64,000 bases of DNA. It comes from Patescibacteria group bacterium. Its GTDB lineage: Bacteria; Patescibacteriota; Patescibacteriia; UBA1558; UBA10009. This document shows, piece after piece, positions 9,970 through 47,493 of this stretch (position 1 is its first letter; the number at the start of each line of letters is the position of its first letter). The stretch lies in the NCBI GenBank assembly GCA_041662565.1, contig JBAZSE010000001.1, positions 257,084 through 321,083 on the forward strand, in the 5' to 3' direction. Under the pieces are notes generated by a model. The model saw only the letters and a program-made list of their open reading frames with translations. It did no database searches and was not told the DNA's origin. Both the position numbers and the translations under genes were made by a program.

Positions 9970-10222
9970 AGAATTAATAAAATCATCTTATCAGAAATCA
10001 ATTTAACAAACAACTGCATTTTTAACACCTTTTGCACTTTAAACTGTGGCTAACAAAAAAGCCGCTTAATTCAGGAACAATTTCTCAAAATACAACTACA
10101 ACCTCAATGTATTGGGGATTTTTCTAATGGAGTCCTGGTCGAGCTAAGCTCGATGGTCCGCATATTCACAATCTTTTTTCGATAGGGCTTTACTTTTAGG
10201 TATCTGGTGTTATTATAAAAGC

Positions 10223-10573
10223 ATGGTTGAAAATATGAGCAAAAACCGAAAAATAATTCTGGATAAACACGACGAAGCATTAACGGATTTTATTCGCACG
10301 GCGATTGACAAAGTTATTGCAAAAGCACATATGCCATCAGGGGTTGCCAAAAGAATTGTTAGTCGTGCTGTGTATCATCGGAATATGGGGCGCAAAGCCG
10401 CCATCGCTAATTACCCATTTAGCGGTATCTGTGAGGTAAGCGGGCTTCCTATAGATGACTCAATCAAGTCGCTTGATGAAATAGAGGGTGCCAAGGGCTA
10501 TGTTAGTGGGAATTTACGTTGGGTATGTCAAAAAGCAAATAATAATGGTACTGGAACTTGCGGTAAATGCTGA
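10223..10573 (+). CDS. small Endonuclease VII/HNH-fold-like protein with substituted catalytic histidines
   Basis: C-terminal pattern C-x...LDEIEG...GNLRWVCQKANNNG...CGKC resembles the Endo VII HLDHDH...RGLLCNLCN block, but has DEIE in place of DHDH. Confidence 0.3.
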   Translation: MVENMSKNRKIILDKHDEALTDFIRTAIDKVIAKAHMPSGVAKRIVSRAVYHRNMGRKAAIANYPFSGICEVSGLPIDDSIKSLDEIEGAKGYVSGNLRWVCQKANNNGTGTCGKC

Positions 10574-10640
10574 ATAAATCATTTCACATAGTATTACTTA
10601 TTTGCGAATTAAATAAAACAATTTATTTAAATATTTTTTT

Positions 10641-10832
10641 ATGAAAAAACAATTTTATACCTTTGTTATTTTAATTATTTTGTTTGTTGTTAGTACTTTC
10701 TATTGGTTTAATATTAGGCCGAGTGATATAAGAAAAACTTGTATAAATTACTCCATGGCTGATGCTGCAAATCAAGAAATTTTTTGGAATAATTATAAAT
10801 TTTGTCTTGCCAGTAAAGGTTTAAAAGAATAA
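10641..10832 (+). CDS. small membrane protein (1 TM)
   Basis: 63-aa ORF with one hydrophobic helix, in an AT-rich island. Confidence 0.3.
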   Translation: MKKQFYTFVILIILFVVSTFYWFNIRPSDIRKTCINYSMADAANQEIFWNNYKFCLASKGLKE

Positions 10833-24903: not shown

Positions 24904-26289
24904 ATGGCTACTAAAAAAAATACTTCTTCCTCAAAGCTTAAAGAGCAAAAGGGGAAAAGCAAAAAAAACGCCGGTAAAAAAGTTTTTAAAAAAAAGGCCA
25001 AAACAATAAAGGCCAAAGCCAAGCCGGCTAAAAAGGCGGATAAAAAAAAGCCCGCGATTTTTAAATCCAAAAAAGCCAAACAACGCATCATTAAAGCCAA
25101 GCCATTTAAAAAACATTACCGCCTGCCGGAAGTTAAGCATAAAAATGTTCAACCCCAGCAGGATGAAACCACAGTTAAGGGCTTGGATTTGGCAGTTGTT
25201 AGGGCCTTGGAAGAAAAAGGCCGTTTTAGAAGTTTTATTACCGAAGAAGAAGTGCTGTATGTTTTTACCGAAGCTGAAGAATATCTGGATCAGTTAGAAG
25301 AATTTTTAGATCGTTTAAACGAAGCCGGCATTCAAATGGTTTCGCGCGAAGGCGGATTTTTGGGTGAAACGGAAAATATTCCCGTAACTCCGGCCAGCAA
25401 AAAAAAGACCCACGAACTTTCGGCTAAGGAATTGTTGGAACTGCAAAAATTGGATCTAACCGATATTTCTTCCGATTCCATTCAGATGTACCTGCGGGAA
25501 ATCGGCAAGGTTCATTTGCTAACTACCGAAGAAGAAGTGCAATTGGCCAAGCGCAAAGAAAAAGGGGATATGGAAGCCAAGAAAAGGTTGGTTGAAGCCA
25601 ACTTGCGTTTGGTGGTATCCATTGCCAAAAAGTTTACTGGCCGCAGTTTAAGTTTGTTGGATTTAATCCAAGAGGGCAATATTGGCTTATTTAGGGCAGT
25701 AGAAAAATTTGATTATCGCAAAGGTTATAAGTTTTCCACTTACGCTACTTGGTGGATCAGGCAAGCTATTACTCGCGCGCTGGCCGATCAATCTAGAACA
25801 ATCCGCATTCCGGTGCACATGGTAGAAACCATTAATCGTTTCCAACAGGCCGAAAGAAGGTTGATTCAGGATTTAGGCAGAGAGCCAATGCCCGAAGAAA
25901 TTGCCGCGGAAATGGGCGAGGAGCTTGACAAAGTCCGCCAAATCATTAAAATATCACAAGAAACCGTTTCGCTGGAAACATCGGTAGGCGAAGATGACGA
26001 AGATTCCACTTTAGGTGATTTTATAGAGGATGAAAAAACCATTTCACCGGATAAGGTTGCGGCTTTGCAATTGTTAAAAGATCATGTTCAGCAGATTATT
26101 TCTGACCTTACCCCCAGAGAGCAAAAGATTTTGGAAATGCGTTTTGGTCTTTTAGACGGTGTAGCCCATACTTTGGAAGAAGTGGGTCAGGAATTTGGCG
26201 TAACCCGCGAGCGCATTAGGCAAATTGAAGCCAAAGCCCTGGAAAGAATTCAGCATAACACAGGCATGCGTAAATTAAGAGATTATTAA
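24904..26289 (+). CDS. rpoD: RNA polymerase sigma factor RpoD with Lys/Ala-rich N-terminal extension
   Basis: Regions 1.2 through 4.2 are recognisable ([10 protein letters not shown], the [16 protein letters not shown] block, and [22 protein letters not shown]). The first ~60 aa are a KKAK-repeat tail. Confidence 0.92.
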
Positions 26290-26462: not shown

Positions 26463-27010
26463 GAACACGGTCTTTGCTATAATCAGTTTATGGCTAAAGA
26501 CAAAAGAACCTATCGTGATCGCGCTGAATATCTTAAAAAAGCTGTTGATAAAAGGCGTAAGAGTTTACGTTTAATGGCTGTAAGATATAAAGGCGGCAAG
26601 TGTCAACTTTGCGGATACAAAAAGTGCATTCAAGCATTAGATTTTCATCATTTAGATCCTAAAAAGAAAGATTTTGGAATTTCAGAATCCGGAACAACAA
26701 GATCTTGGATGAAAATTAAAACGGAATTGGATAAATGTCTAATGATTTGTGCTAATTGTCATCGTGAAGTTCATCATGGTAAAACGCAGCTTTTTGCCGT
26801 AAGGCAGATTGAAAAATGAGGTGAACTCGGGGAAGCCTGAAATGGTAATCCCGAGCCAAGCCCTGATCTTGCTTAAGCAAGCGTCGGGGAAGGTGTAGAG
26901 ACTATCCTTAACAGGAGTACCTTGTAATGATTACAAGGGAAGCGCCTCATCTCCTAAAAGTTTTAGGAGAATGATATAGTCCACCCTTTAGAGAAATCTA
27001 GAGACAAGTG
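26463..27010 (+). mobile_element. group I self-splicing intron (~548 nt) carrying an HNH homing-endonuclease ORF
   Basis: The 5-prime exon ends in U and the intron ends in G, as group I splicing requires. R-like (GUAGAGACUAUCC) and S-like (GAUAUAGUCC) elements sit at 26895-26906 and 26973-26982. There is also a CGGGGAAGG P-like element. Confidence 0.55.
26490..26819 (+). CDS. HNH homing endonuclease (intron-encoded)
   Basis: CQLCG...LDFHHLDPKKKD...CANCHREVHHG: the classic HNH His-Asn-His/zinc-finger arrangement. Confidence 0.8.
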   Translation: MAKDKRTYRDRAEYLKKAVDKRRKSLRLMAVRYKGGKCQLCGYKKCIQALDFHHLDPKKKDFGISESGTTRSWMKIKTELDKCLMICANCHREVHHGKTQLFAVRQIEK

Positions 27011-27360: not shown

Positions 27361-28620
27361 ATGCTTGAACAGGCAAATTGTATGAGAAATGTTTTTATAA
27401 AATTTATCCCTTTTTGGATTTTTCTAATTATCTATAAGCTAGGAGGCAGTTTGCACTATTCCTTAATCTCACCTCTTGGGGAAAGGCTTTTACCTTTATG
27501 GATTGTCGGGCTTTTAATGGGCGGCAGCTCAATTATCCAAATGTTGCTTGATGTTCCGGCAGGTCATTTTTTGGATCGCTTTGGTTATCTTAAACTGTTA
27601 AAACTAACGACTTTTATTTTTCTCTTTGCCGGCATTGCCTTTATTTTTAATTTTACCATTGCCACTTATATTATTAGCCTGATAGCCGCCACTTTCGGTT
27701 GGGTGTTGTTTGGTCCCGGAGTTAACGCCTATATTCTTTCTCAGGCACCTAAAAAAAATTCCGGCACTTTCATCTCCTTTAGGGATATTTTCGGCTCAGC
27801 TGGTGTTTTTCTGGCCAGCGCCGTTTTAGGCCTAGTACTTGCCTTAACTCCGACCACCATAGGAACAATAATATTCGCCATAATGCTGGCGGCACTGGCA
27901 GCGCTTTACTTTAGCCCTCCAGATACCATTTCTGTTCATCATGAACAAAAACTCCCCACACAACATCATTATATAAGAAGAAATTATCCTCATAAACTTT
28001 TGCCTATTTTAAAAAAGCTTAATCCGGCTAGTTCCATGCTTTTGCTAACAGGACTTACTTCTTCTATTTTTTACGGCGTCATCTGGTTTGTAGTGCCTAT
28101 AGTAATTGCCAATAGCGCTAACTCGGGCTTGCTCAGTATCGGTCTAGGTATTTTTGATTTTGCCATAGTAGCGCTTGGATTTCTATTAGGTAAGATGGCG
28201 GACAAAGGCAATAAAAGAACGCTGGTCTTTTTTGGATTGTTATTGTTTGCCGTATCGGGAATTCTGATCGGTTTTAATTTTAACTGGCTGTTCCTGGTTT
28301 TGGGATTTTTAGCTACCACTGGCGACGAAATGGCAAGCATTTCCTTATGGTCATGGTTGCATAGTTTAGATAAAGAACACGCTAATGATGGCCTGCTTTC
28401 CGGCGCCATTAACCTTTTTCAAGATTTGGGCTGGGCCATCGGACCGATTATTTCTGGATTTCTTTTTACCTTGATCGGGCCTTCATGGACTATTATGTTT
28501 TCAGCTGTCTTGTTATTCGCCACTTGGATTGTTTACCAATTTTTAATCAAACAGCACCGCCTGTCTTCAACCGGAATTGATATTCCTAAAAAGCCGCATC
28601 GAGCCAGGCATCATGTGTAA
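27361..28620 (+). CDS. MFS transporter
   Basis: 419 aa, 12 predicted TM helices, and an MFS-like loop motif (GHFLDRFGY). Confidence 0.75.
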   Translation: MLEQANCMRNVFIKFIPFWIFLIIYKLGGSLHYSLISPLGERLLPLWIVGLLMGGSSIIQMLLDVPAGHFLDRFGYLKLLKLTTFIFLFAGIAFIFNFTIATYIISLIAATFGWVLFGPGVNAYILSQAPKKNSGTFISFRDIFGSAGVFLASAVLGLVLALTPTTIGTIIFAIMLAALAALYFSPPDTISVHHEQKLPTQHHYIRRNYPHKLLPILKKLNPASSMLLLTGLTSSIFYGVIWFVVPIVIANSANSGLLSIGLGIFDFAIVALGFLLGKMADKGNKRTLVFFGLLLFAVSGILIGFNFNWLFLVLGFLATTGDEMASISLWSWLHSLDKEHANDGLLSGAINLFQDLGWAIGPIISGFLFTLIGPSWTIMFSAVLLFATWIVYQFLIKQHRLSSTGIDIPKKPHRARHHV

Positions 28621-41746: not shown

Positions 41747-42385
41747 TTAAGAGTTCGGCGCCAGTTGATTTATGGCTAGGGCGGCGTCTTTATTTTCTAC
41801 AATAATCGTTAATTCGGAAGATGAAGAAATCACCTCAATGATGTTTATTTTTTTAATGGCGATTTTTTTAATTAAACTGTAAATAATGTTGGGCTCTGAA
41901 AGGTAGCTAAGCGGAAATTTTAATGAAATGCCGGTAAGGTTTTTTTTGTGAAAAAGGTGGTTTGGGCCGAAATCGTTTTTTATTCTGGCCATGGATTTTT
42001 GATCGCCAACCATGGTAATTTCGGTGATGCTTTGGGTAATGGCCAAAAAGTTTTGTTCCTGATGAGCCAGTTGTTTGTAAGAGTGGGAAAGTTTTTGTAA
42101 AAAAACCGAGGTTTTTTCGTAAGACAATTCTTCCAAATCAGCGTAAACCGCCAGACGGGAAATTTTTAAGTTTTTCTCTTCTGCTTGTTCCGGCAAACTT
42201 TTGGCTATTCTGGAAAGGGTAACCACGATAGAGCTGGTTTTGATGTTTTTTTTCGTTAAAACTTCAACTTTACTTTTGATTTTTTTGGCATAGGCCGAAA
42301 GGTTAATTAAACCCTTTTTTAAAGGAGAGTGAAGTTCCATGTCTTGTTCCACCAGATTTTTTACCGCTTCAGATATTTTTAACAT
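41747..42385 (-). CDS. hypothetical protein (possible ACT-like C-terminal domain)
   Basis: 212 aa. The C-terminal region shows a beta-alpha-beta-beta-alpha-beta-like pattern. It is transcribed divergently from the lysW operon. Confidence 0.25.
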   Translation of the reverse strand: MLKISEAVKNLVEQDMELHSPLKKGLINLSAYAKKIKSKVEVLTKKNIKTSSIVVTLSRIAKSLPEQAEEKNLKISRLAVYADLEELSYEKTSVFLQKLSHSYKQLAHQEQNFLAITQSITEITMVGDQKSMARIKNDFGPNHLFHKKNLTGISLKFPLSYLSEPNIIYSLIKKIAIKKINIIEVISSSSELTIIVENKDAALAINQLAPNS

Positions 42386-42502
42386 ATTTGTTATAAATTA
42401 AACATTTAGTAAATATATTGTAACAAATTCATAAAAATTTTACAAGCTGGCATTAATCCGATAAATTATTGTTAGTATTATCATAATTTAATTGTTTAAT
42501 AT

Positions 42503-42736
42503 ATGTCTAACTTAACCGTTTCCTGTCCGTGGGATGATTGCCAAAATTTAGTTGCCATTGCCGATTCCGCTCAAGAAAGCGATGTTTTGGTTTGTCGCAC
42601 AAACGAGCAAACACCAGCCAATGCCCAAGGTTGTAACCGCAATGTGGAAGTAACCTCATTGGTTAAAGCAGAAAATAATTTGCCTGTTTCAGCCGTGCTG
42701 AGCCCTTTGGCAGTAAGCGAAGATTGGGGAGAATAA
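42503..42736 (+). CDS. lysW: amino-group carrier protein LysW
   Basis: Zinc-finger Cys pairs CPWDDC...CRTN...GC, acidic linker, and the diagnostic C-terminal EDWGE. Confidence 0.8.
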   Translation: MSNLTVSCPWDDCQNLVAIADSAQESDVLVCRTNEQTPANAQGCNRNVEVTSLVKAENNLPVSAVLSPLAVSEDWGE

Positions 42737-42741
42737 CAACT

Positions 42742-43596
42742 ATGCCAAATCTTATCGCTTTATTGCATACCGGCATCCGTGAGGAAGAGCGGATGATTTT
42801 GGAAAAAGCTAAAGAACTGGGAGTGGCCATGGAACCCTTGGACGCCCGAGGTGTTGTTTTTGGTTCTCAAAATAGAGATTCTTTTACCAAATACAGTTTG
42901 GTTTTACAGCGTTGTGTGGCGGCCAATAAAGCCGAGAATGTTTTGTGGTATTTTGAAGAAATGGGAATTCCGGTGGTTAACAGCTTAGCCATTTCTGAAT
43001 TGTGTAAAAATAAATTCGCCACTTCTTTAAGGTTATTTGAAAAAGGTGTGCCCACTCCACGCTTTGCTTTGGTTTTTAACGAAGCATCCGCTTTAAATGC
43101 GGTAAAAGATTTAGGCGGTTTTCCGGTGGTGATTAAGCCCATCAAGGGTACTTCTTGGGGCCGGTTAATGGGTAAGGTTAATGATGCCGATGGCCTAGAA
43201 ATGATTTTGGAACACAAAGAAGCCATGGGCGTTAATCATCAATCGTTTTATTTACAAGAATATATCAATAAGCCGGGAAGAGATATTAGAATTTATGTAG
43301 CTCAAGGTGAAGTGTACGCCGCAATATATCGTTTTGCCCCCCATTGGATAACTAATACGGCCAGGGGCGCCACGGTAGAAGTTTGCCCAATTACGCCCGA
43401 GATTCAAGAACTGGGCAAAAAAATCCAATCAGCTATGGGTAATGGATTATTGGCCGTTGATCTTTTTGAAAGTGAACAGGGTTTACTGGTTAATGAAGTT
43501 AACGATAATATGGAATTTAAAAACGTGGTAAAAATTACAGGCCAGGATGTGCCTAAGAAAATTATTGAATACTGTCTGTCAGTCATGAAGAGTTAG
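42742..43596 (+). CDS. lysX: ATP-grasp ligase LysX/ArgX (RimK family), LysW C-terminal Glu ligase
   Basis: RimK-like ATP-grasp pattern (GGFPVVIKP...GSWGR...FYLQEYI...RDIRIYV...VNEVN), immediately downstream of lysW. Confidence 0.8.
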   Translation: MPNLIALLHTGIREEERMILEKAKELGVAMEPLDARGVVFGSQNRDSFTKYSLVLQRCVAANKAENVLWYFEEMGIPVVNSLAISELCKNKFATSLRLFEKGVPTPRFALVFNEASALNAVKDLGGFPVVIKPIKGTSWGRLMGKVNDADGLEMILEHKEAMGVNHQSFYLQEYINKPGRDIRIYVAQGEVYAAIYRFAPHWITNTARGATVEVCPITPEIQELGKKIQSAMGNGLLAVDLFESEQGLLVNEVNDNMEFKNVVKITGQDVPKKIIEYCLSVMKS

Positions 43597-43775
43597 TTTT
43601 AAGTCGGCTGAGATTGGTAATTTTTTTCGTAACGGGACTGTGTGAGCCGAAATTACATCGCGCAACCAAAGTCGCTAAAAGGAGCATTAGATTAAATCAA
43701 AGCACAAATGGTAGGCGAGTTTCGCGAGCGGAAAAAATTAGCAATTTCAGCCGACATTTTAGTAGAGATATTTTT

Positions 43776-44819
43776 ATGAATCAAGAAAAAATAAAAATAG
43801 CCATAGTTGGCGCCAGCGGTTATGCCGGCGGGGAATTATTAAGGATTTTACTCAATCATCCTTTGGTTGAAGTTGTTCAAGCCACTTCACGCAAGTTTTT
43901 TGGCAAAAAAGTTGCTTTGTTGCATCCAAATTTGCGCGGGCTTACGGATTTAAAATTTTGCCAACCCGCTGAACTAGTTAAGTGCGATTTGCTTATTTTA
44001 GCCACGCCCCATGGCGAGGTCATGGGCAATTTGGATCATTATTTAAAATTAGCCGATAAAATTATTGATTTATCAGCTGATTTTAGATTAAAAAATCCGG
44101 CTGATTATCCTAAATGGTATAAGCTTAATCATCCTGCCCCCAATTATTTGCCTAAATTTATCGGCGGTTTAGCCGAGCTTTATCGTGAGCAAATTAAAAC
44201 TGCCAATTTGGTATCTTGTTACGGGTGTGAAGCCACTTGCGCCATTTTAGGGCTTTATCCTTTATTTAAAGAAGGGGTAGTGGAAAATCATCAGGTTTTT
44301 TTGGATGTTAAAATAGGTTCCAGTGCGGCCGGGGCCGAAAGTTCCAGTTCCAGTCATCATCCCGAAAGAGCCGGCGCTGTTCGCTCTTATAAACCAACCG
44401 GGCACAGGCATATGGCCGAAATTTCTCAAGAATTGGGTAGCAACAAAGTTTATCTTTCCGCCACAGCGATTGAAATGGTTAGAGGTATTTTAATCACTTC
44501 GCAAATTTTATTAAATAAGGATTTAACCGAAGAGGATATTTTAGGCATTTACCGCAAGTTTTATTTAAACGAACCGTTTATTAGAATCATTCGCGATAAA
44601 ATGGGCTTGTATCGTTTTCCGGAACCAAAGATATTAGCCGGCAGTAATTTTTGCGATATTGGTTTTGAAAAAGAACAGGGGACTAATCGTTTGGTAGTTG
44701 TTTCGGCCATCGATAATTTGGTTAAAGGTACGGCTGGTCAGGCCATTCAGGCATTAAATATTATGTACGGCTTTGAAGAAAGAATTGGTTTGGAATTTCC
44801 CGGGCTTCATCCAATATAA
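43776..44819 (+). CDS. lysY: N-acetyl-gamma-glutamyl-phosphate reductase family (LysY/ArgC)
   Basis: IAIVGASGYAGGELLRIL Rossmann N-terminus and the active-site Cys region (SCYGCEAT). Confidence 0.85.
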   Translation: MNQEKIKIAIVGASGYAGGELLRILLNHPLVEVVQATSRKFFGKKVALLHPNLRGLTDLKFCQPAELVKCDLLILATPHGEVMGNLDHYLKLADKIIDLSADFRLKNPADYPKWYKLNHPAPNYLPKFIGGLAELYREQIKTANLVSCYGCEATCAILGLYPLFKEGVVENHQVFLDVKIGSSAAGAESSSSSHHPERAGAVRSYKPTGHRHMAEISQELGSNKVYLSATAIEMVRGILITSQILLNKDLTEEDILGIYRKFYLNEPFIRIIRDKMGLYRFPEPKILAGSNFCDIGFEKEQGTNRLVVVSAIDNLVKGTAGQAIQALNIMYGFEERIGLEFPGLHPI

Positions 44820-44832
44820 TTTTTATTTTTAT

Positions 44833-45639
44833 ATGATTTTAGTAAAAATTGGCGGTGGACAGGCAATAAATTTTGATTATATCGTTTCTGATATTGCCGA
44901 GCTTATTAAAAAAGGCGAACAATTTATTTTAGTGCACGGAGCTAATTATGAAAGAAACGAACTGGCTCGCAAACTGGGCATTGAAGTTAAAAAAATTACC
45001 GCTCCTTCGGGTATTTCTTCGGTTTACACCACGCCCCAGGTAATGGAAACAATTTTAATGAGCTACGCCGGGCTGGTTAATAAAAAATTAGTGGCTAAAT
45101 TGCAAAGCTTGAATGTTCCAGCTATTGGTTTAACCGGTGCAGATGGGCGGTTAATTGAAGCTGAAAGAAAAGAATTAATATTATCCCAAGAAGGTGAACG
45201 AGTTAGAGCCATCAGGGATGATTTAAGCGGTAAAGTAGTTAAAATAAATACCAATCTGTTGGAACTTTTATTGGCTAATAAATATGTGCCTGTTTTAACC
45301 ATTCCGGCTATAACCGCTTCAGGGCAGTTGCTTAATGTTGATAACGACCAGTTTTGCGCTATGCTGGTTAAAAGTTTAAAAATCAGTAGAATGGTTTTTT
45401 TATTTGAAGAAAAAGGTTTATTAAAAGAATCCGATAATCCCGATTCTGTGGTAAAAAAAATAACTTTTGCCAATTTAAATCAAGCTATGGCTTGGTCTAA
45501 CGGCCGGATGAAACAAAAGATATTGGGTGTTATTGGTTCATTACAAACCGGAGTTAAAGAAATTTATTTTGCCGATGGCCGAATAGAGCAGCCAATTTCC
45601 AATGCTTTAGCCGGCGAAGGCACGATTATCACCAATTAA
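44833..45639 (+). CDS. lysZ: amino acid kinase family (LysZ/ArgB)
   Basis: MILVKIGGG N-terminus and the AAK fold pattern. Confidence 0.8.
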   Translation: MILVKIGGGQAINFDYIVSDIAELIKKGEQFILVHGANYERNELARKLGIEVKKITAPSGISSVYTTPQVMETILMSYAGLVNKKLVAKLQSLNVPAIGLTGADGRLIEAERKELILSQEGERVRAIRDDLSGKVVKINTNLLELLLANKYVPVLTIPAITASGQLLNVDNDQFCAMLVKSLKISRMVFLFEEKGLLKESDNPDSVVKKITFANLNQAMAWSNGRMKQKILGVIGSLQTGVKEIYFADGRIEQPISNALAGEGTIITN

Positions 45640-45674
45640 ATTAATCCATTCCTTATTAATTATTTACTTCCCCT

Positions 45675-46331
45675 ATGTGCCGTTTTCTTATTATTAATCA
45701 ACAAGAGCCAAAAAACATTCAAGAATATCTTGTTCCCTTTGCAACCAGTTGCCAGCAAAGCGAACGCTGGCAAGGCGACGGTTGGGGAATCTCTTGGTTG
45801 GATAAGGGAGTTTGGAAAACTTATTATTCTTTAAAACCGATCTGGGAAGATCAAAAAAATTTCAGTCAGATCCCCATTAGCCAATTATTTTTAATCCATG
45901 CTCGGGGTTCTTCTTTTCCTAAAGATAAAGGCAATTTGGAATATAACCAACCGTTTATCAAGGGCAATTTGGCCTTTGTGTTTAACGGATTTTTAAATGG
46001 CGTTAAATTATCCCAACCAATTGAAGGCAAGGTTGGTTCGCAAAAGATTTTTAATTTATTACTTTCCTCATCCGGTTCTTTGGCTGCTGAAAAATTACAG
46101 CAAGCCACAAATGCCTTGCTTGGTAATTCTTCCATTGTTGAGGCCTTAAATATCGGCTTAGCCACACCTCAAGAAATTATTTTATTTAATCATTTTATTA
46201 CCCAAGGGACTTATCACCAGCTTTATAATTATCACACCAATAATTTAAGATTGGTTTCTCTGGAACCTTTTGGTGATTTTGCTTGGCAGGCCTTGCCTCA
46301 TGATCAGGTTATTAATATTCCGGTTTTGTAA
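45675..46331 (+). CDS. class II glutamine amidotransferase-like Ntn hydrolase (Cys2 nucleophile)
   Basis: MC N-terminus plus HARGSS...NQPF...FVFNGFLNG, matching the GATase-II HxRxAT...NxHPF...HNGxIxN pattern. It is embedded between lysZ and lysJ. Confidence 0.65.
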   Translation: MCRFLIINQQEPKNIQEYLVPFATSCQQSERWQGDGWGISWLDKGVWKTYYSLKPIWEDQKNFSQIPISQLFLIHARGSSFPKDKGNLEYNQPFIKGNLAFVFNGFLNGVKLSQPIEGKVGSQKIFNLLLSSSGSLAAEKLQQATNALLGNSSIVEALNIGLATPQEIILFNHFITQGTYHQLYNYHTNNLRLVSLEPFGDFAWQALPHDQVINIPVL

Positions 46332-46332
46332 T

Positions 46333-47493
46333 ATGGATAATTTAGCCATCCAAAAACAATTCATGTTGTCGCTTTATCCCAACCGCCAATTGGTTTTAAC
46401 CAAGGGCGAGGGCGTTTATTTATTTGATGAAGAGAATAATAAATATCTTGATTTGTTAAGCAATTACGGCGTTAATATTTTGGGTTATAATAATTTAGCG
46501 ATCAATCAGGTTTTGTCTGAACAGCTAAATAAATTAATTAATCTGCACGGCAGTTTTGGCAATGACCAAAGATCTTTGGCTTTGCAAAGTTTAGCTGATT
46601 GTTTGCCCAGTGGTTTAAATAAAGTTTTTTTTAGCAATTCCGGCACCGAAAGTATAGAAGCGGCTTTAAAGTTTGCTTTATTTGCTAGCGGCAAAACTCA
46701 ACTGTTAGCCGCGCGCAACGGTTATCACGGTAAAACCCTGGGCGCTTTAGGAGCTACCACCAGCCACCAGGATCATTATCGTCAGCCGTTTTTAAAATTT
46801 GTTCCCAAGTTTGATTTTATAGAATTTAACAACATCGCCAGTTTATCGGCTATTACCAATCAAACTGCCGCGGTTATTATTGAACCCTTGCAAGGTGAAG
46901 GCGGGGTAGTGGTTGGTAATAAAGATTTTTTTACCAAGTTACGGCAAATTTGCGACCAAACCGGAACATTACTTATTATGGATGAGGTGCAAACGGGATT
47001 AGGCAGAACCGGCCGGCTGTTCGCTTATGAGCATTTTGGCATTATTCCGGATATTTTGTGCTTAGGCAAGGGTTTGGCGGGCGGATTGCCGGCCGGCCTA
47101 ACTATTATTTCAGATTCAGTGGCTGCTAAATTAACCAAGGGCTTGCACACCAATACTTTTGGCGGCGGCCCGTTGGTTTGTGCGGGAATTAGTACTACTT
47201 TAAAGTTTTTGCAAGATAACAAGTTGCCTGTTCAGACCTCATTTAACGGATTGTATTTTATGAGTGAATTACAAAAATTAAATTCCCCGTTGATTAAAGA
47301 AGTTAGGGGATTGGGTTTGATGATTGCCATTGAATTAACAGCCAAGGCCTTACCCTATTTAATGGCTTTGCAAAAAAACGGCATAATTGCCGGACCAAGT
47401 GAAGAAAACGTGATTCGCTTGTTACCGCCTTTAATAATTTCTCAATCCGAAATTGATGAGGCCATTAGAATATTTAAGAAAGTTTTAAGTTAA
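46333..47493 (+). CDS. lysJ: class III PLP aminotransferase (LysJ/ArgD, acetylornithine aminotransferase family)
   Basis: DEVQTGLGRTG and the GKGLAGGLP PLP-lysine region. Confidence 0.85.
   Translation: MDNLAIQKQFMLSLYPNRQLVLTKGEGVYLFDEENNKYLDLLSNYGVNILGYNNLAINQVLSEQLNKLINLHGSFGNDQRSLALQSLADCLPSGLNKVFFSNSGTESIEAALKFALFASGKTQLLAARNGYHGKTLGALGATTSHQDHYRQPFLKFVPKFDFIEFNNIASLSAITNQTAAVIIEPLQGEGGVVVGNKDFFTKLRQICDQTGTLLIMDEVQTGLGRTGRLFAYEHFGIIPDILCLGKGLAGGLPAGLTIISDSVAAKLTKGLHTNTFGGGPLVCAGISTTLKFLQDNKLPVQTSFNGLYFMSELQKLNSPLIKEVRGLGLMIAIELTAKALPYLMALQKNGIIAGPSEENVIRLLPPLIISQSEIDEAIRIFKKVLS

Follow-up and report, generated by a model that had tools for sequence, protein, structure and literature searches.

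Organization of the LysW operon

In biosynthetic pathways that run on the amino-group carrier protein LysW, the finished product is freed by LysK, the [LysW]-lysine/ornithine hydrolase, which in Thermus, Deinococcus, Sulfolobus, and Thermococcus is an M20 metallopeptidase of the ArgE/DapE family. The locus at positions 42503 to 47493 of the window (the whole 64-kb stretch of DNA analysed, part of an 809-kb contig) combines lysW and its companion genes with a gene for an N-terminal-Cys Ntn hydrolase and raises the question of which enzyme performs this release. An earlier note on this DNA had described a contiguous six-gene operon here, and all six genes, lysW, lysX, lysY, lysZ, the Ntn hydrolase gene, and lysJ, are indeed present on the + strand at those positions. 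The operon encodes the LysW amino-group carrier protein pathway for lysine or ornithine.

The first gene, lysW (42503..42736), adjoins lysX on its upstream side and encodes a 77-aa protein with a pI of 4.05, a C-terminal EDWGE, and four Cys in an unusual spacing (CX4C...CX12C). It matched no Pfam or NCBIfam model, the Pfam LysW model included, and is a divergent amino-group carrier protein; its long form (76 to 77 aa) is common to the two closest relatives, L078 and L079, both of which end in EDWGQ. The identities of the next three genes are established by scores above curated cutoffs. LysX (42742..43596) reached 297 bits against TIGR02144 (cutoff, 275.6), matched the Pfam models LysX_preATP_grasp and RimK, and shares approximately 40% identity with the solved LysX of T. 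thermophilus and LysX/ArgX of T. kodakarensis; it is the predicted ATP-grasp ligase by which aminoadipate and/or glutamate is attached to the C-terminal Glu of LysW. LysY (43776..44819), at 380 bits against TIGR01850 argC (cutoff, 234) and 49 to 62% identity to its operon-encoded counterparts in relatives, is the predicted ArgC-type reductase for the LysW-bound acyl phosphate. LysZ (44833..45639), at 272 bits against the [LysW]-aminoadipate kinase model NF010659 (cutoff, 223), is likewise predicted to be an amino-acid kinase with a LysW-bound substrate. The overlap of lysZ with lysY noted previously is explained entirely by the upstream TTG with which the listed open reading frame begins; the likely start, the ATG at 44833, lies 13 nt past the lysY stop and leaves none. 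The Ntn hydrolase gene (45675..46331) follows, and lysJ (46333..47493) begins after a gap of 1 nt. LysJ matched Pfam Aminotran_3 (E = 9e-102), with argD/LysJ models as its top NCBIfam matches, every one under its strict cutoff, and is predicted to be the class III aminotransferase for the LysW-bound semialdehyde.

The lysX-lysY spacer (43597..43775; 179 nt) has 24-nt inverted ends (43603-43626 and 43732-43755; 22 of 24 positions matching) and folds into a long hairpin with a minimum free energy of -57.7 kcal/mol (z = -5.4 versus shuffles). An Rfam search returned no match in the spacer, and L078, the nearest relative, lacks it, its lysX and lysY overlapping; the spacer probably represents either an inserted element or an RNA that forms a stem-loop. 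Upstream, a gene on the - strand (41747..42385) encodes a 212-aa protein with tandem ACT domains. This protein had no Pfam match and resembled aspartate kinase weakly, in the C-terminal part of the latter; in its AF2 model (pLDDT 85) two ACT-like domains come after four N-terminal helices, and aspartokinase regulatory subunits are the top PDB matches (E = 2e-8). Homologs lie upstream of lysW on the opposite strand in about 30 genome loci and many metagenome loci across phyla, and the protein is a candidate amino-acid-sensing regulator of the operon. The AT-rich region between the two genes (42386..42502; 117 nt) is presumably a divergent promoter region, for which the promoter-like hexamers found on both strands by a consensus scan are suggestive only, their count being not above that of shuffles.

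Fold and active site of the Ntn hydrolase

The Ntn protein (218 aa; N-terminus MCRF) had no Pfam match at E values up to 0.01, and its sole NCBIfam match, to EgtC, was far below threshold (39 bits versus a cutoff of 218.65). The class II GATase/Ntn fold that had been assigned to it is confirmed by an AlphaFold (AF2) model with a pLDDT of 96.3, for which the best Foldseek match in the PDB was EgtC (4zfl; E = 9e-14, TM = 0.76), followed by class II GATase domains. Its family is a compact group of 136 representative clusters (E up to 1e-30) tied to lysW operons, across which C2, R77, N104-G105, and G121 are invariant. Judged by alignment, Cys1, the putative carboxylate-binding Arg, and the predicted Asn-Gly oxyanion hole are thus all kept. 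G121 lines up with the Asp that binds the alpha-amino group in class II GATases of the YafJ/3MDN type. This Asp belongs to an [ST]-D-[ST]-E motif and, in GlmS (D123) and PurF (D127), holds the free alpha-amino group of glutamine; approximately 100 family members invariably have Gly in its place, within G-[AS]-[QE]-K, an assignment based on sequence and profile alignments, of which those to GlmS and PurF had very low probability by themselves. Such a replacement would be expected if the glutamyl alpha-nitrogen sits in a peptide bond, and it fits a protein-bound C-terminal Glu as the substrate.

The fold and catalytic residues are also those of an ordinary glutaminase, which would use free glutamine to provide LysJ with its glutamate donor or a partner with ammonia and would not act on LysW at all, and relatives are named class II glutamine amidotransferase in some database sources. 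That the enzyme has this role is very unlikely. The Asp for the free alpha-amino group of glutamine has given way to the invariant Gly, a synthase or acceptor domain is neither fused to the protein nor found beside it with any consistency, and amidation is not among the steps of the LysW pathway; such a role would also leave both the lack of LysK and the Gln-ended LysW proteins described below without an explanation. More improbable still is cleavage of some other gamma-glutamyl compound in an EgtC-like small-molecule pathway, with the operon linkage unrelated to LysW: ergothioneine genes were seen in no locus, the linkage to lysJ and lysZ is near-universal across phyla, and the EgtC model, for all that EgtC is the closest solved structure and the sole NCBIfam match, scored as low as stated above. 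The homologs in Entotheonella that are located outside lysW operons are the other observation in favor of such a substrate.

Distribution of the Ntn gene and of M20 hydrolases

Co-occurrence of the Ntn gene with lysW in other genomes had been set as a test of its link to the pathway, and the gene proved to be conserved in lysW operons across CPR and other phyla. Among GTDB genome loci found via the Ntn protein, it lies directly after lysJ in 58 of the 65 that could be assessed, the usual order being lysX-lysY-(AAA genes)-lysZ-lysJ-Ntn. In a second sample, 80 metagenome loci anchored on LysW, every one of the 36 complete operons (those not cut by a contig end) carries the gene, and 31 of these encode a Glu-ended LysW. 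Ntn-containing lysW operons were identified in CPR phyla, in a MAG labelled Borrarchaeota (Asgard archaea), and in Dehalococcoidia, Acidobacteriota/Aminicenantes, and Fischerbacteria, with the gene found outside a lysW operon in six Entotheonella/Tectimicrobiota loci and in L072. A LysW pathway had been thought unexpected in a CPR genome, but it is in fact common in Microgenomates-type MAGs.

Three canonical operons, found in Deinococcus, in Blastocatellia, and in one metagenome, have the order W-X-Y-Z-J-M20, with a terminal M20 LysK and without an Ntn gene. The earlier observation that no M20 gene lies within about 6 kb of the operon holds and extends to the whole 64-kb window, in which searches with E. 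coli ArgE, a Deinococcus [LysW]-lysine hydrolase, and a three-sequence M20 profile found no M20 hydrolase. With ArgE, LysK, and the M20 profile as queries, the approximately 150 Ntn-type loci (up to 20 kb each) were also devoid of M20 genes, with the exception of L015, in which LysW is Gln-ended and an ArgE/DapE-like M20 gene lies upstream of lysW in addition to the Ntn gene. The [LysW]-lysine hydrolase model (cutoff, 363) gave the L015 M20 protein a score of 72 bits, and this protein resembles DapE more closely. No published account of an Ntn hydrolase in LysW operons was found in the literature.

Alternation of Glu and Gln at the LysW C terminus

A new observation here is that LysW tails alternate between Glu and Gln in Ntn-type operons. 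Across 79 nonredundant operons, 56 tails end in E and 23 (29%) in Q, as EDWGQ rather than EDWGE; at least 12 E/Q switches were counted on a LysX+LysY tree, and the tail differs even between operons that are 91% identical. In a Deinococcus-centred LysW sample 2 of 35 end in Q, although this sample is not an adequate control for Gln tails being limited to Ntn-type systems; of the two, only one has a usable context, and it is encoded by an orphan lysW of an actinomycete MAG, without nearby pathway genes. Because LysX needs a carboxylate, a Gln-ended LysW necessarily calls for a deamidase; the candidate is the Ntn protein, as no other enzyme of the glutaminase type is encoded in these operons. The Gln tails would thus imply a deamidase and, by analogy with Pup and Dop, a predicted dual role for the Ntn protein.

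If the enzyme served solely in maturation, converting Gln-ended pro-LysW to LysW-Glu, release would fall to an M20 LysK/ArgE encoded elsewhere. An unlinked lysK could lie outside the regions searched (the 64-kb window and up to 20 kb per related locus), much as lysJ and lysK are unlinked from the main lys cluster in T. thermophilus, and both the 29% of Gln tails and the gene combination in L015 agree with such a division of labor. We nevertheless regard it as unlikely. The other 71% of operons, that of the window among them, encode a Glu-ended LysW that needs no maturation, the Ntn gene is kept in 31 of 31 complete Glu-type operons of the LysW-anchored sample, it occupies the exact LysK slot of canonical operons, and the M20 protein of L015 falls well short of the hydrolase cutoff.

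The reading we propose, with a probability of roughly three in four, is that the Ntn hydrolase is an unrelated replacement for the M20 LysK that releases lysine or ornithine from LysW and, in relatives, also deamidates Gln-ended LysW. The nonorthologous replacement suggested in the earlier note is supported by operon context, the LysK slot, and the near-absence of M20 genes, with further independent support from the active-site changes and the Gln-ended LysW proteins. We infer the substrate as well as both activities, release and deamidation. Removal of the initiator Met would expose Cys1, the thiol of which would attack the gamma-carbonyl of the C-terminal glutamyl residue of LysW; the Asn104/Gly105 oxyanion hole would stabilize the intermediate while Arg77 grips the free alpha-carboxylate of that residue. 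The amine, lysine or ornithine, would then depart, and hydrolysis of the gamma-glutamyl thioester would regenerate LysW-Glu for the next round. In relatives with EDWGQ tails the same reaction, with ammonia leaving, would turn an inert pro-carrier into active LysW-Glu, which may be analogous to the action of Dop, an enzyme that deamidates Pup-GGQ and also removes Pup from its substrates.

Pathway flavors associated with the Ntn gene

The association with the Ntn gene spans lysine-type, arginine-type, and bifunctional-like pathway flavors. Most relatives are clearly lysine-type, with LysX signature F-I-T-NS and genes for homocitrate synthase and LysRS; class I LysRS lies directly downstream in about 20 loci, and lysine 2,3-aminomutase occurs in some. 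One Ntn operon is arginine-type (LysX F-M-T-GL, OTCase, CPSase, and ArgRS). The specificity signature of the window LysX, Y-I-T-NV, is closest to the Y-I-T-NA of bifunctional LysX/ArgX, and the earlier preference for ornithine as the likelier product is therefore dropped; the window operon would yield lysine, ornithine, or both.

Comparison with known systems

LysK shares with the Ntn enzyme the terminal operon place after lysJ in canonical operons and the proposed reaction, in which the gamma-glutamyl isopeptide holding lysine or ornithine on the LysW C terminus is hydrolyzed. The two have no sequence similarity, and the metal-dependent M20 fold of LysK contrasts with a metal-independent N-terminal-Cys hydrolase proposed to act through a thioester; to our knowledge, LysK plays no part in the activation of a carrier that ends in Gln. 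EgtC (PDB 4zfj, 4zfk, and 4zfl; solved chains of 227 to 235 aa) is also a stand-alone class II glutaminase fold with an N-terminal Cys, an Ntn amidohydrolase of the ergothioneine pathway that releases an amine from a gamma-glutamyl amide. However, its identity to the Ntn protein is only 17 to 19%, its gene context is different, and the glutamyl alpha-amine of its substrate is free, while in the Ntn family Gly stands in place of the binding Asp. Nearest in sequence is the YafJ/GATase_4 family (PF13230; E. coli YafJ, PDB 3mdn and 1te5), with an hhalign probability of 95.7% for YafJ, a profile E value of 1.4e-6 for 3mdn, and weak PF13230 matches in some Ntn homologs; the MC..., DGWG, H-x-R, and NG motifs are common to both families, which differ in having [ST]-D-S-E in YafJ/GATase_4 and G-[AS]-[QE]-K in the Ntn family.

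A functional analogy may be drawn with actinobacteria, in which Dop is the deamidase and depupylase of the prokaryotic ubiquitin-like protein Pup. Like LysW, Pup is a small protein attached via the side-chain carboxylate of a C-terminal Glu, with Glu or Gln at the C terminus depending on lineage, and Dop combines Gln deamidation and isopeptide cleavage in one enzyme, as proposed for the Ntn hydrolase. Dop, however, binds ATP and belongs to the carboxylate-amine ligase superfamily rather than to the Ntn hydrolases, and Pup marks proteins for degradation, whereas LysW carries biosynthetic intermediates.

An operon of six genes in the window

ORF listing and scans with curated models agreed on the composition that the earlier note had read from the sequence: six same-strand genes at 42503 to 47493 (+), comprising lysW, lysX, lysY, lysZ, a gene for a 218-aa Cys-Ntn hydrolase (45675 to 46331; here, the Ntn gene), and lysJ. 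The lysW gene is a 77-aa ORF directly upstream of lysX, and its product is a small acidic carrier (pI 4.05) with a C-terminal EDWGE, as is characteristic of an amino-group carrier protein (AmCP). The γ-carboxylate of the terminal Glu in this motif carries the substrate (PMC10433800). The LysW of the window has four Cys residues with the spacing CX4C...CX12C and gave no match to PF21344, the Pfam model of the zinc-ribbon LysW domain; the shorter LysW proteins of relatives do match PF21344, and the long variant is common to the window and its two nearest relatives (loci L078 and L079). When the divergent 77-aa protein was used as a tblastn query, no LysW was recovered in relatives, and their lysW genes were found by position and C-terminal motif.

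Adjoining lysW is a gene for a LysX-type ATP-grasp ligase (TIGR02144, 297 bits; cutoff, 275.6), which has a LysX_preATP_grasp domain and carries GTSWGR where the GSWGR motif is expected. LysY scored 380 bits against the argC model TIGR01850 (cutoff, 234) and LysZ 272 bits against NF010659, the [LysW]-aminoadipate kinase model (cutoff, 223), with the ATG at 44833 as the most likely lysZ start. LysJ is a clear class III aminotransferase that did not reach the strict LysJ/argD cutoffs, and its gene starts 1 nt past the Ntn stop codon. The gaps between the genes are short, as noted earlier, with one exception, a structured 179-nt spacer between lysX and lysY (43597 to 43775). Its 24-nt ends are inverted (22 of 24 positions matching), and its predicted fold is a long hairpin (-57.7 kcal/mol, z score of -5.4). 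The nearest relative, with overlapping lysX and lysY, lacks the spacer, which could be either an inserted element of small size or an RNA structure within the operon.

A gene encoding a 212-aa protein is divergent from lysW, an arrangement that is conserved in many loci from different phyla. The modeled protein has four helices and tandem ACT domains, resembling aspartokinase regulatory subunits; it may, at a guess, be a regulator that senses lysine or arginine. Elsewhere in the window, a group I intron was identified at 26723 to 27003 (+) (Rfam RF00028, 71.6 bits, full-length match), between a sigma-70 gene (24904 to 26289) and a membrane-transporter-like gene (27361 to 28620). Its 5' side is overlapped by a 109-aa ORF with HNH-like Cys/His motifs (26490 to 26819; whole region, 26490 to 27003). 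No tRNA, rRNA, or split protein gene was recognized as the host of the intron.

Fold and active site of the Ntn protein

The Ntn protein of the window matched no Pfam family at E values up to 0.01 and hence no curated GATase model; weak matches to PF13230 were found in some of its homologs. Its AlphaFold (AF2) model (pLDDT of 96.3) has the four-layer αββα Ntn fold, and the top Foldseek matches in the PDB were all class II GATase/Ntn proteins (EgtC, 3mdn, PurF, and GlmS), the best solved-structure match being EgtC, followed by other class II glutaminase (Ntn) domains. Identification of the protein as EgtC itself was rejected, as the equivalog model TIGR03442 gave 39 bits against a cutoff of 218.65 and the gene context also differs. 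The gene tables of the Ntn loci examined held no ergothioneine genes (egtA, egtB, egtD, or egtE), the neighbors being lysW, lysX, lysY, lysZ, and lysJ.

A Cys residue directly follows the initiator Met. The window protein starts with MCRF, as do 94 of 102 family members, with VCRF, MCRL, or MCRI in the remainder. Invariant across the family are Cys2, Gln33-x-Asp35-Gly36, His75-x-Arg77, Asn91-Gln92-Pro93, Phe103-Asn104-Gly105, Gly118, and Gly121. Alignment with YafJ, GlmS, and PurF matches H75-A-R77 to their HxR motif and F103-N104-G105 to their NG motif, and both segments were invariant in 36 sequences; the Arg that binds the α-carboxylate and the Asn-Gly oxyanion hole are kept. The Asp of the [ST]-D-[ST]-E motif is replaced, its position aligning with the invariant G121 within a G-[AS]-[QE]-K motif that is present, as GAQK, GSQK, or GAEK, in about 100 members. 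In GlmS and PurF this Asp (D123 and D127, respectively) binds the free α-amino group of glutamine. Profile alignments placed G-x-x-G121-[SA]-[QE]-K opposite G-x-T-D-S-E (PDB 3mdn, E value of 1.4e-6; Escherichia coli YafJ, 95.7% probability), and it is from these two alignments that the equivalence of Asp and G121 is drawn; hhalign comparisons of the family with single GlmS and PurF sequences also set G121 opposite Asp, at negligible probability (0.7% and 0.1%, respectively). As judged from these alignments, an active site that keeps the carboxylate-binding Arg but has Gly for the α-amino-binding Asp is what would be needed for a glutamyl substrate that is C-terminal and peptide bonded.

The Ntn gene is a member of LysW operons in many lineages

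A homolog search returned 291 relatives of the Ntn protein, most of them from CPR Microgenomates-type MAGs, and when 1.84 billion representative proteins were searched exhaustively with a profile, the family proved compact, with 136 clusters at E values up to 1e-30. The gene tables around three homologs each gave the order W-X-Y-(AAA genes)-Z-J-Ntn, where AAA denotes the α-aminoadipate pathway. Co-occurrence of the Ntn gene with lysW in relatives, which the earlier note had put forward as a check, was borne out by a GTDB scan of one genome per species, using a profile built from a 25-sequence alignment subset. Of the 69 loci obtained, 65 extend far enough upstream to be assessed, and in 58 of these the Ntn gene directly follows a lysJ on the same strand. 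As labeled, the taxa with lysJ-Ntn loci include many CPR groups, a Borrarchaeota (Asgard) MAG, Dehalococcoidia, Acidobacteriota/Aminicenantes, and Fischerbacteria. The exceptions among the 65 were one unclassified MAG and six Entotheonella/Tectimicrobiota loci. In the latter (L027, L038, L041, L044, L047, and L056; match at approximately 10001 to 10650 in each), an Ntn homolog of 36 to 38% identity lies outside a lysW operon, and its neighbors include luciferase-like oxidoreductase and ABC transporter genes.

To avoid the bias of a sample anchored on Ntn, metagenome contigs were also searched from LysW, which gave 80 loci, 44 of them cut by a contig end. The Ntn gene was present in all 36 complete operons and an M20 gene in none (0/36); the sample consists mostly of close relatives of the query LysW, and these figures describe consistency within that lineage, not across all LysW systems. 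Overall, the Ntn gene has lysW, lysX, lysY, lysZ, and lysJ as its neighbors in about 95 related operons as well as in the window.

The Ntn hydrolase occupies the position of LysK

The M20-family metallohydrolase LysK is the only final enzyme of the LysW pathway in present models, a 2025 analysis (PMC12998189) among them. An M20 gene had not been seen near the operon, and searches with E. coli ArgE, a Deinococcus [LysW]-lysine hydrolase, and a small M20 profile extended this absence to the whole 64 kb. Three canonical operons, on a Deinococcus plasmid (curated annotation), in a Blastocatellia MAG, and on a metagenome contig, read W-X-Y-Z-J-M20 without an Ntn gene; the M20 proteins of the latter two are 52% identical to Deinococcus LysK. 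As the operons are otherwise collinear, M20 LysK and the Ntn hydrolase fill the same terminal slot, and both operon types were found within Acidobacteriota (locus L014 versus L162). The only Ntn-type locus that also carries an M20 gene is L015 (L015:4466-5608, upstream of a Gln-ended lysW). The product of this gene is more similar to DapE/ArgE than to LysK, and its best NCBIfam matches are DapE-like, all under cutoff. We estimate the probability that the Ntn hydrolase is a nonorthologous replacement of LysK at roughly three in four.

Lysine, ornithine, or both

A published five-residue specificity signature of LysX (PMC12998189) was read from alignments with LysX proteins of solved structure. 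Most Ntn-type operons carry an F-I-T-NS LysX, the lysine type of Thermus thermophilus, often together with homocitrate synthase, homoaconitase, and homoisocitrate dehydrogenase. At L040:9699-12008 and in about 19 other loci, the gene directly downstream of Ntn on the same strand encodes a class I lysyl-tRNA synthetase of approximately 768 aa; TIGR00467 spans only its residues 1 to 519, leaving a C-terminal extension of about 250 aa. Lysine 2,3-aminomutase (TIGR03820, 548 bits, above cutoff) adjoins several Ntn-type operons (L034:5491-6831, with matches starting near 14696 in L096 and near 7940 in L080 and L081), an indication that part of the lysine produced is turned into β-lysine. The L006 lineage combines an F-M-T-GL LysX with OTCase, carbamoyl-phosphate synthase, and ArgRS (L006:9308-11032, about 650 nt downstream, past a short opposite-strand gene) and is on these grounds of the arginine type.

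In the window, as in L078 and L079, LysX has the signature Y-I-T-NV, one residue off the Y-I-T-NA of the bifunctional Thermococcus kodakarensis enzyme, the gene order is W-X-Y-Z-Ntn-J, and neither AAA nor arginine genes lie close by. Searches of the window for pathway partners (homocitrate synthase, homoaconitase, homoisocitrate dehydrogenase, OTCase, CPSase, ArgH, class I LysRS, lysine 2,3-aminomutase, and an Orn/DAP decarboxylase) gave no match, so that the product could be either lysine or ornithine. In the Komeilibacteria locus L079, which has the gene order of the window, an Orn/DAP/Arg decarboxylase-family gene without a homolog in the window lies just upstream of lysW (L079:766-2082), a hint that the product of this subclade may feed polyamine or lysine metabolism. 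Across the operons compared, the Ntn enzyme accompanies lysine, ornithine, and possibly dual systems.

Gln- and Glu-ended LysW

In many relatives LysW ends in EEDWGQ, not EEDWGE. The 79 nonredundant operons divide into 56 with a Glu tail and 23 with a Gln tail, at least 12 changes between the two are required on a neighbor-joining tree of LysX plus LysY, and the tail differs even between operons that are 91% identical. The LysW of the window ends in Glu and those of its two nearest relatives in Gln. Because the accepted mechanism uses the γ-carboxylate of the terminal Glu (PMC10433800), Gln-ended LysW would be inert until deamidated, and that deamidation is what would be expected of a glutaminase-fold enzyme able to act on a glutamyl residue in peptide linkage. 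Retention of the Ntn gene in all 31 complete Glu-type operons argues that deamidation is not its sole job.

Controls for restriction of the Gln tail to Ntn-type operons were weak. The LysW-anchored metagenome scan gave operons of that type only. A Deinococcus-centered sample of LysW contained 33 Glu and 2 Gln tails, the Gln cases being on very short contigs or, in an actinomycete MAG (L167:10001-13078), orphan, and not placeable in an operon. In this MAG the lysW ending in EDWGQ, of which a near-identical variant ends in EDWGK, has no lysX, lysY, lysZ, or lysJ nearby. A Thermomicrobium plasmid lysX was an orphan and uninformative. The lysW of the actinomycete MAG adjoins a DJ-1/PfpI gene, and a choloylglycine hydrolase-family (Cys-Ntn) gene whose product starts with MC is 2 kb away.

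Comparison with known systems

The LysW route is a textbook case of lysine and arginine biosynthesis evolving from a common ancestor, and we judge the operons described here to be a variant of this pathway, not a new kind of system. In open-access full text, nothing was found that links LysW to an Ntn or class II amidotransferase-type hydrolase or to CPR, and "EDWGQ" occurred in no paper. If the pathway has in the Ntn hydrolase a second releasing enzyme, unrelated to LysK, a step that seems to be missing in many uncultivated lineages would be filled; annotation pipelines would otherwise score lysine or arginine synthesis there as incomplete, which bears on the host dependence of CPR. LysK is promiscuous (PMC12998189), and the occurrence of the Ntn gene with more than one type of system is a likeness between the two.

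A further likeness is to pupylation. Pup is encoded with either GGQ or GGE at its C terminus, and Dop is both its deamidase and the depupylase; LysW, too, is encoded with Gln or Glu according to lineage. By this analogy, which appears close, the Ntn protein may well be a dual, Dop-like enzyme that deamidates a Gln-ended pro-LysW and also frees lysine or ornithine from the carrier, allowing LysW to be used again, a role that we favor by a little and hold somewhat less certain than the replacement of LysK. The carrier would then be made in some lineages as an inactive, Gln-ended precursor; to our knowledge, none has been described for amino-group carrier proteins. If the dual role is true, the Ntn-type operons would represent a second, metal-independent type of LysW pathway, found in CPR, in several further bacterial phyla, and in at least one MAG labeled as Asgard archaeal, and LysW would join Pup as only the second small protein of prokaryotes known to have a Gln/Glu switch at its C terminus.
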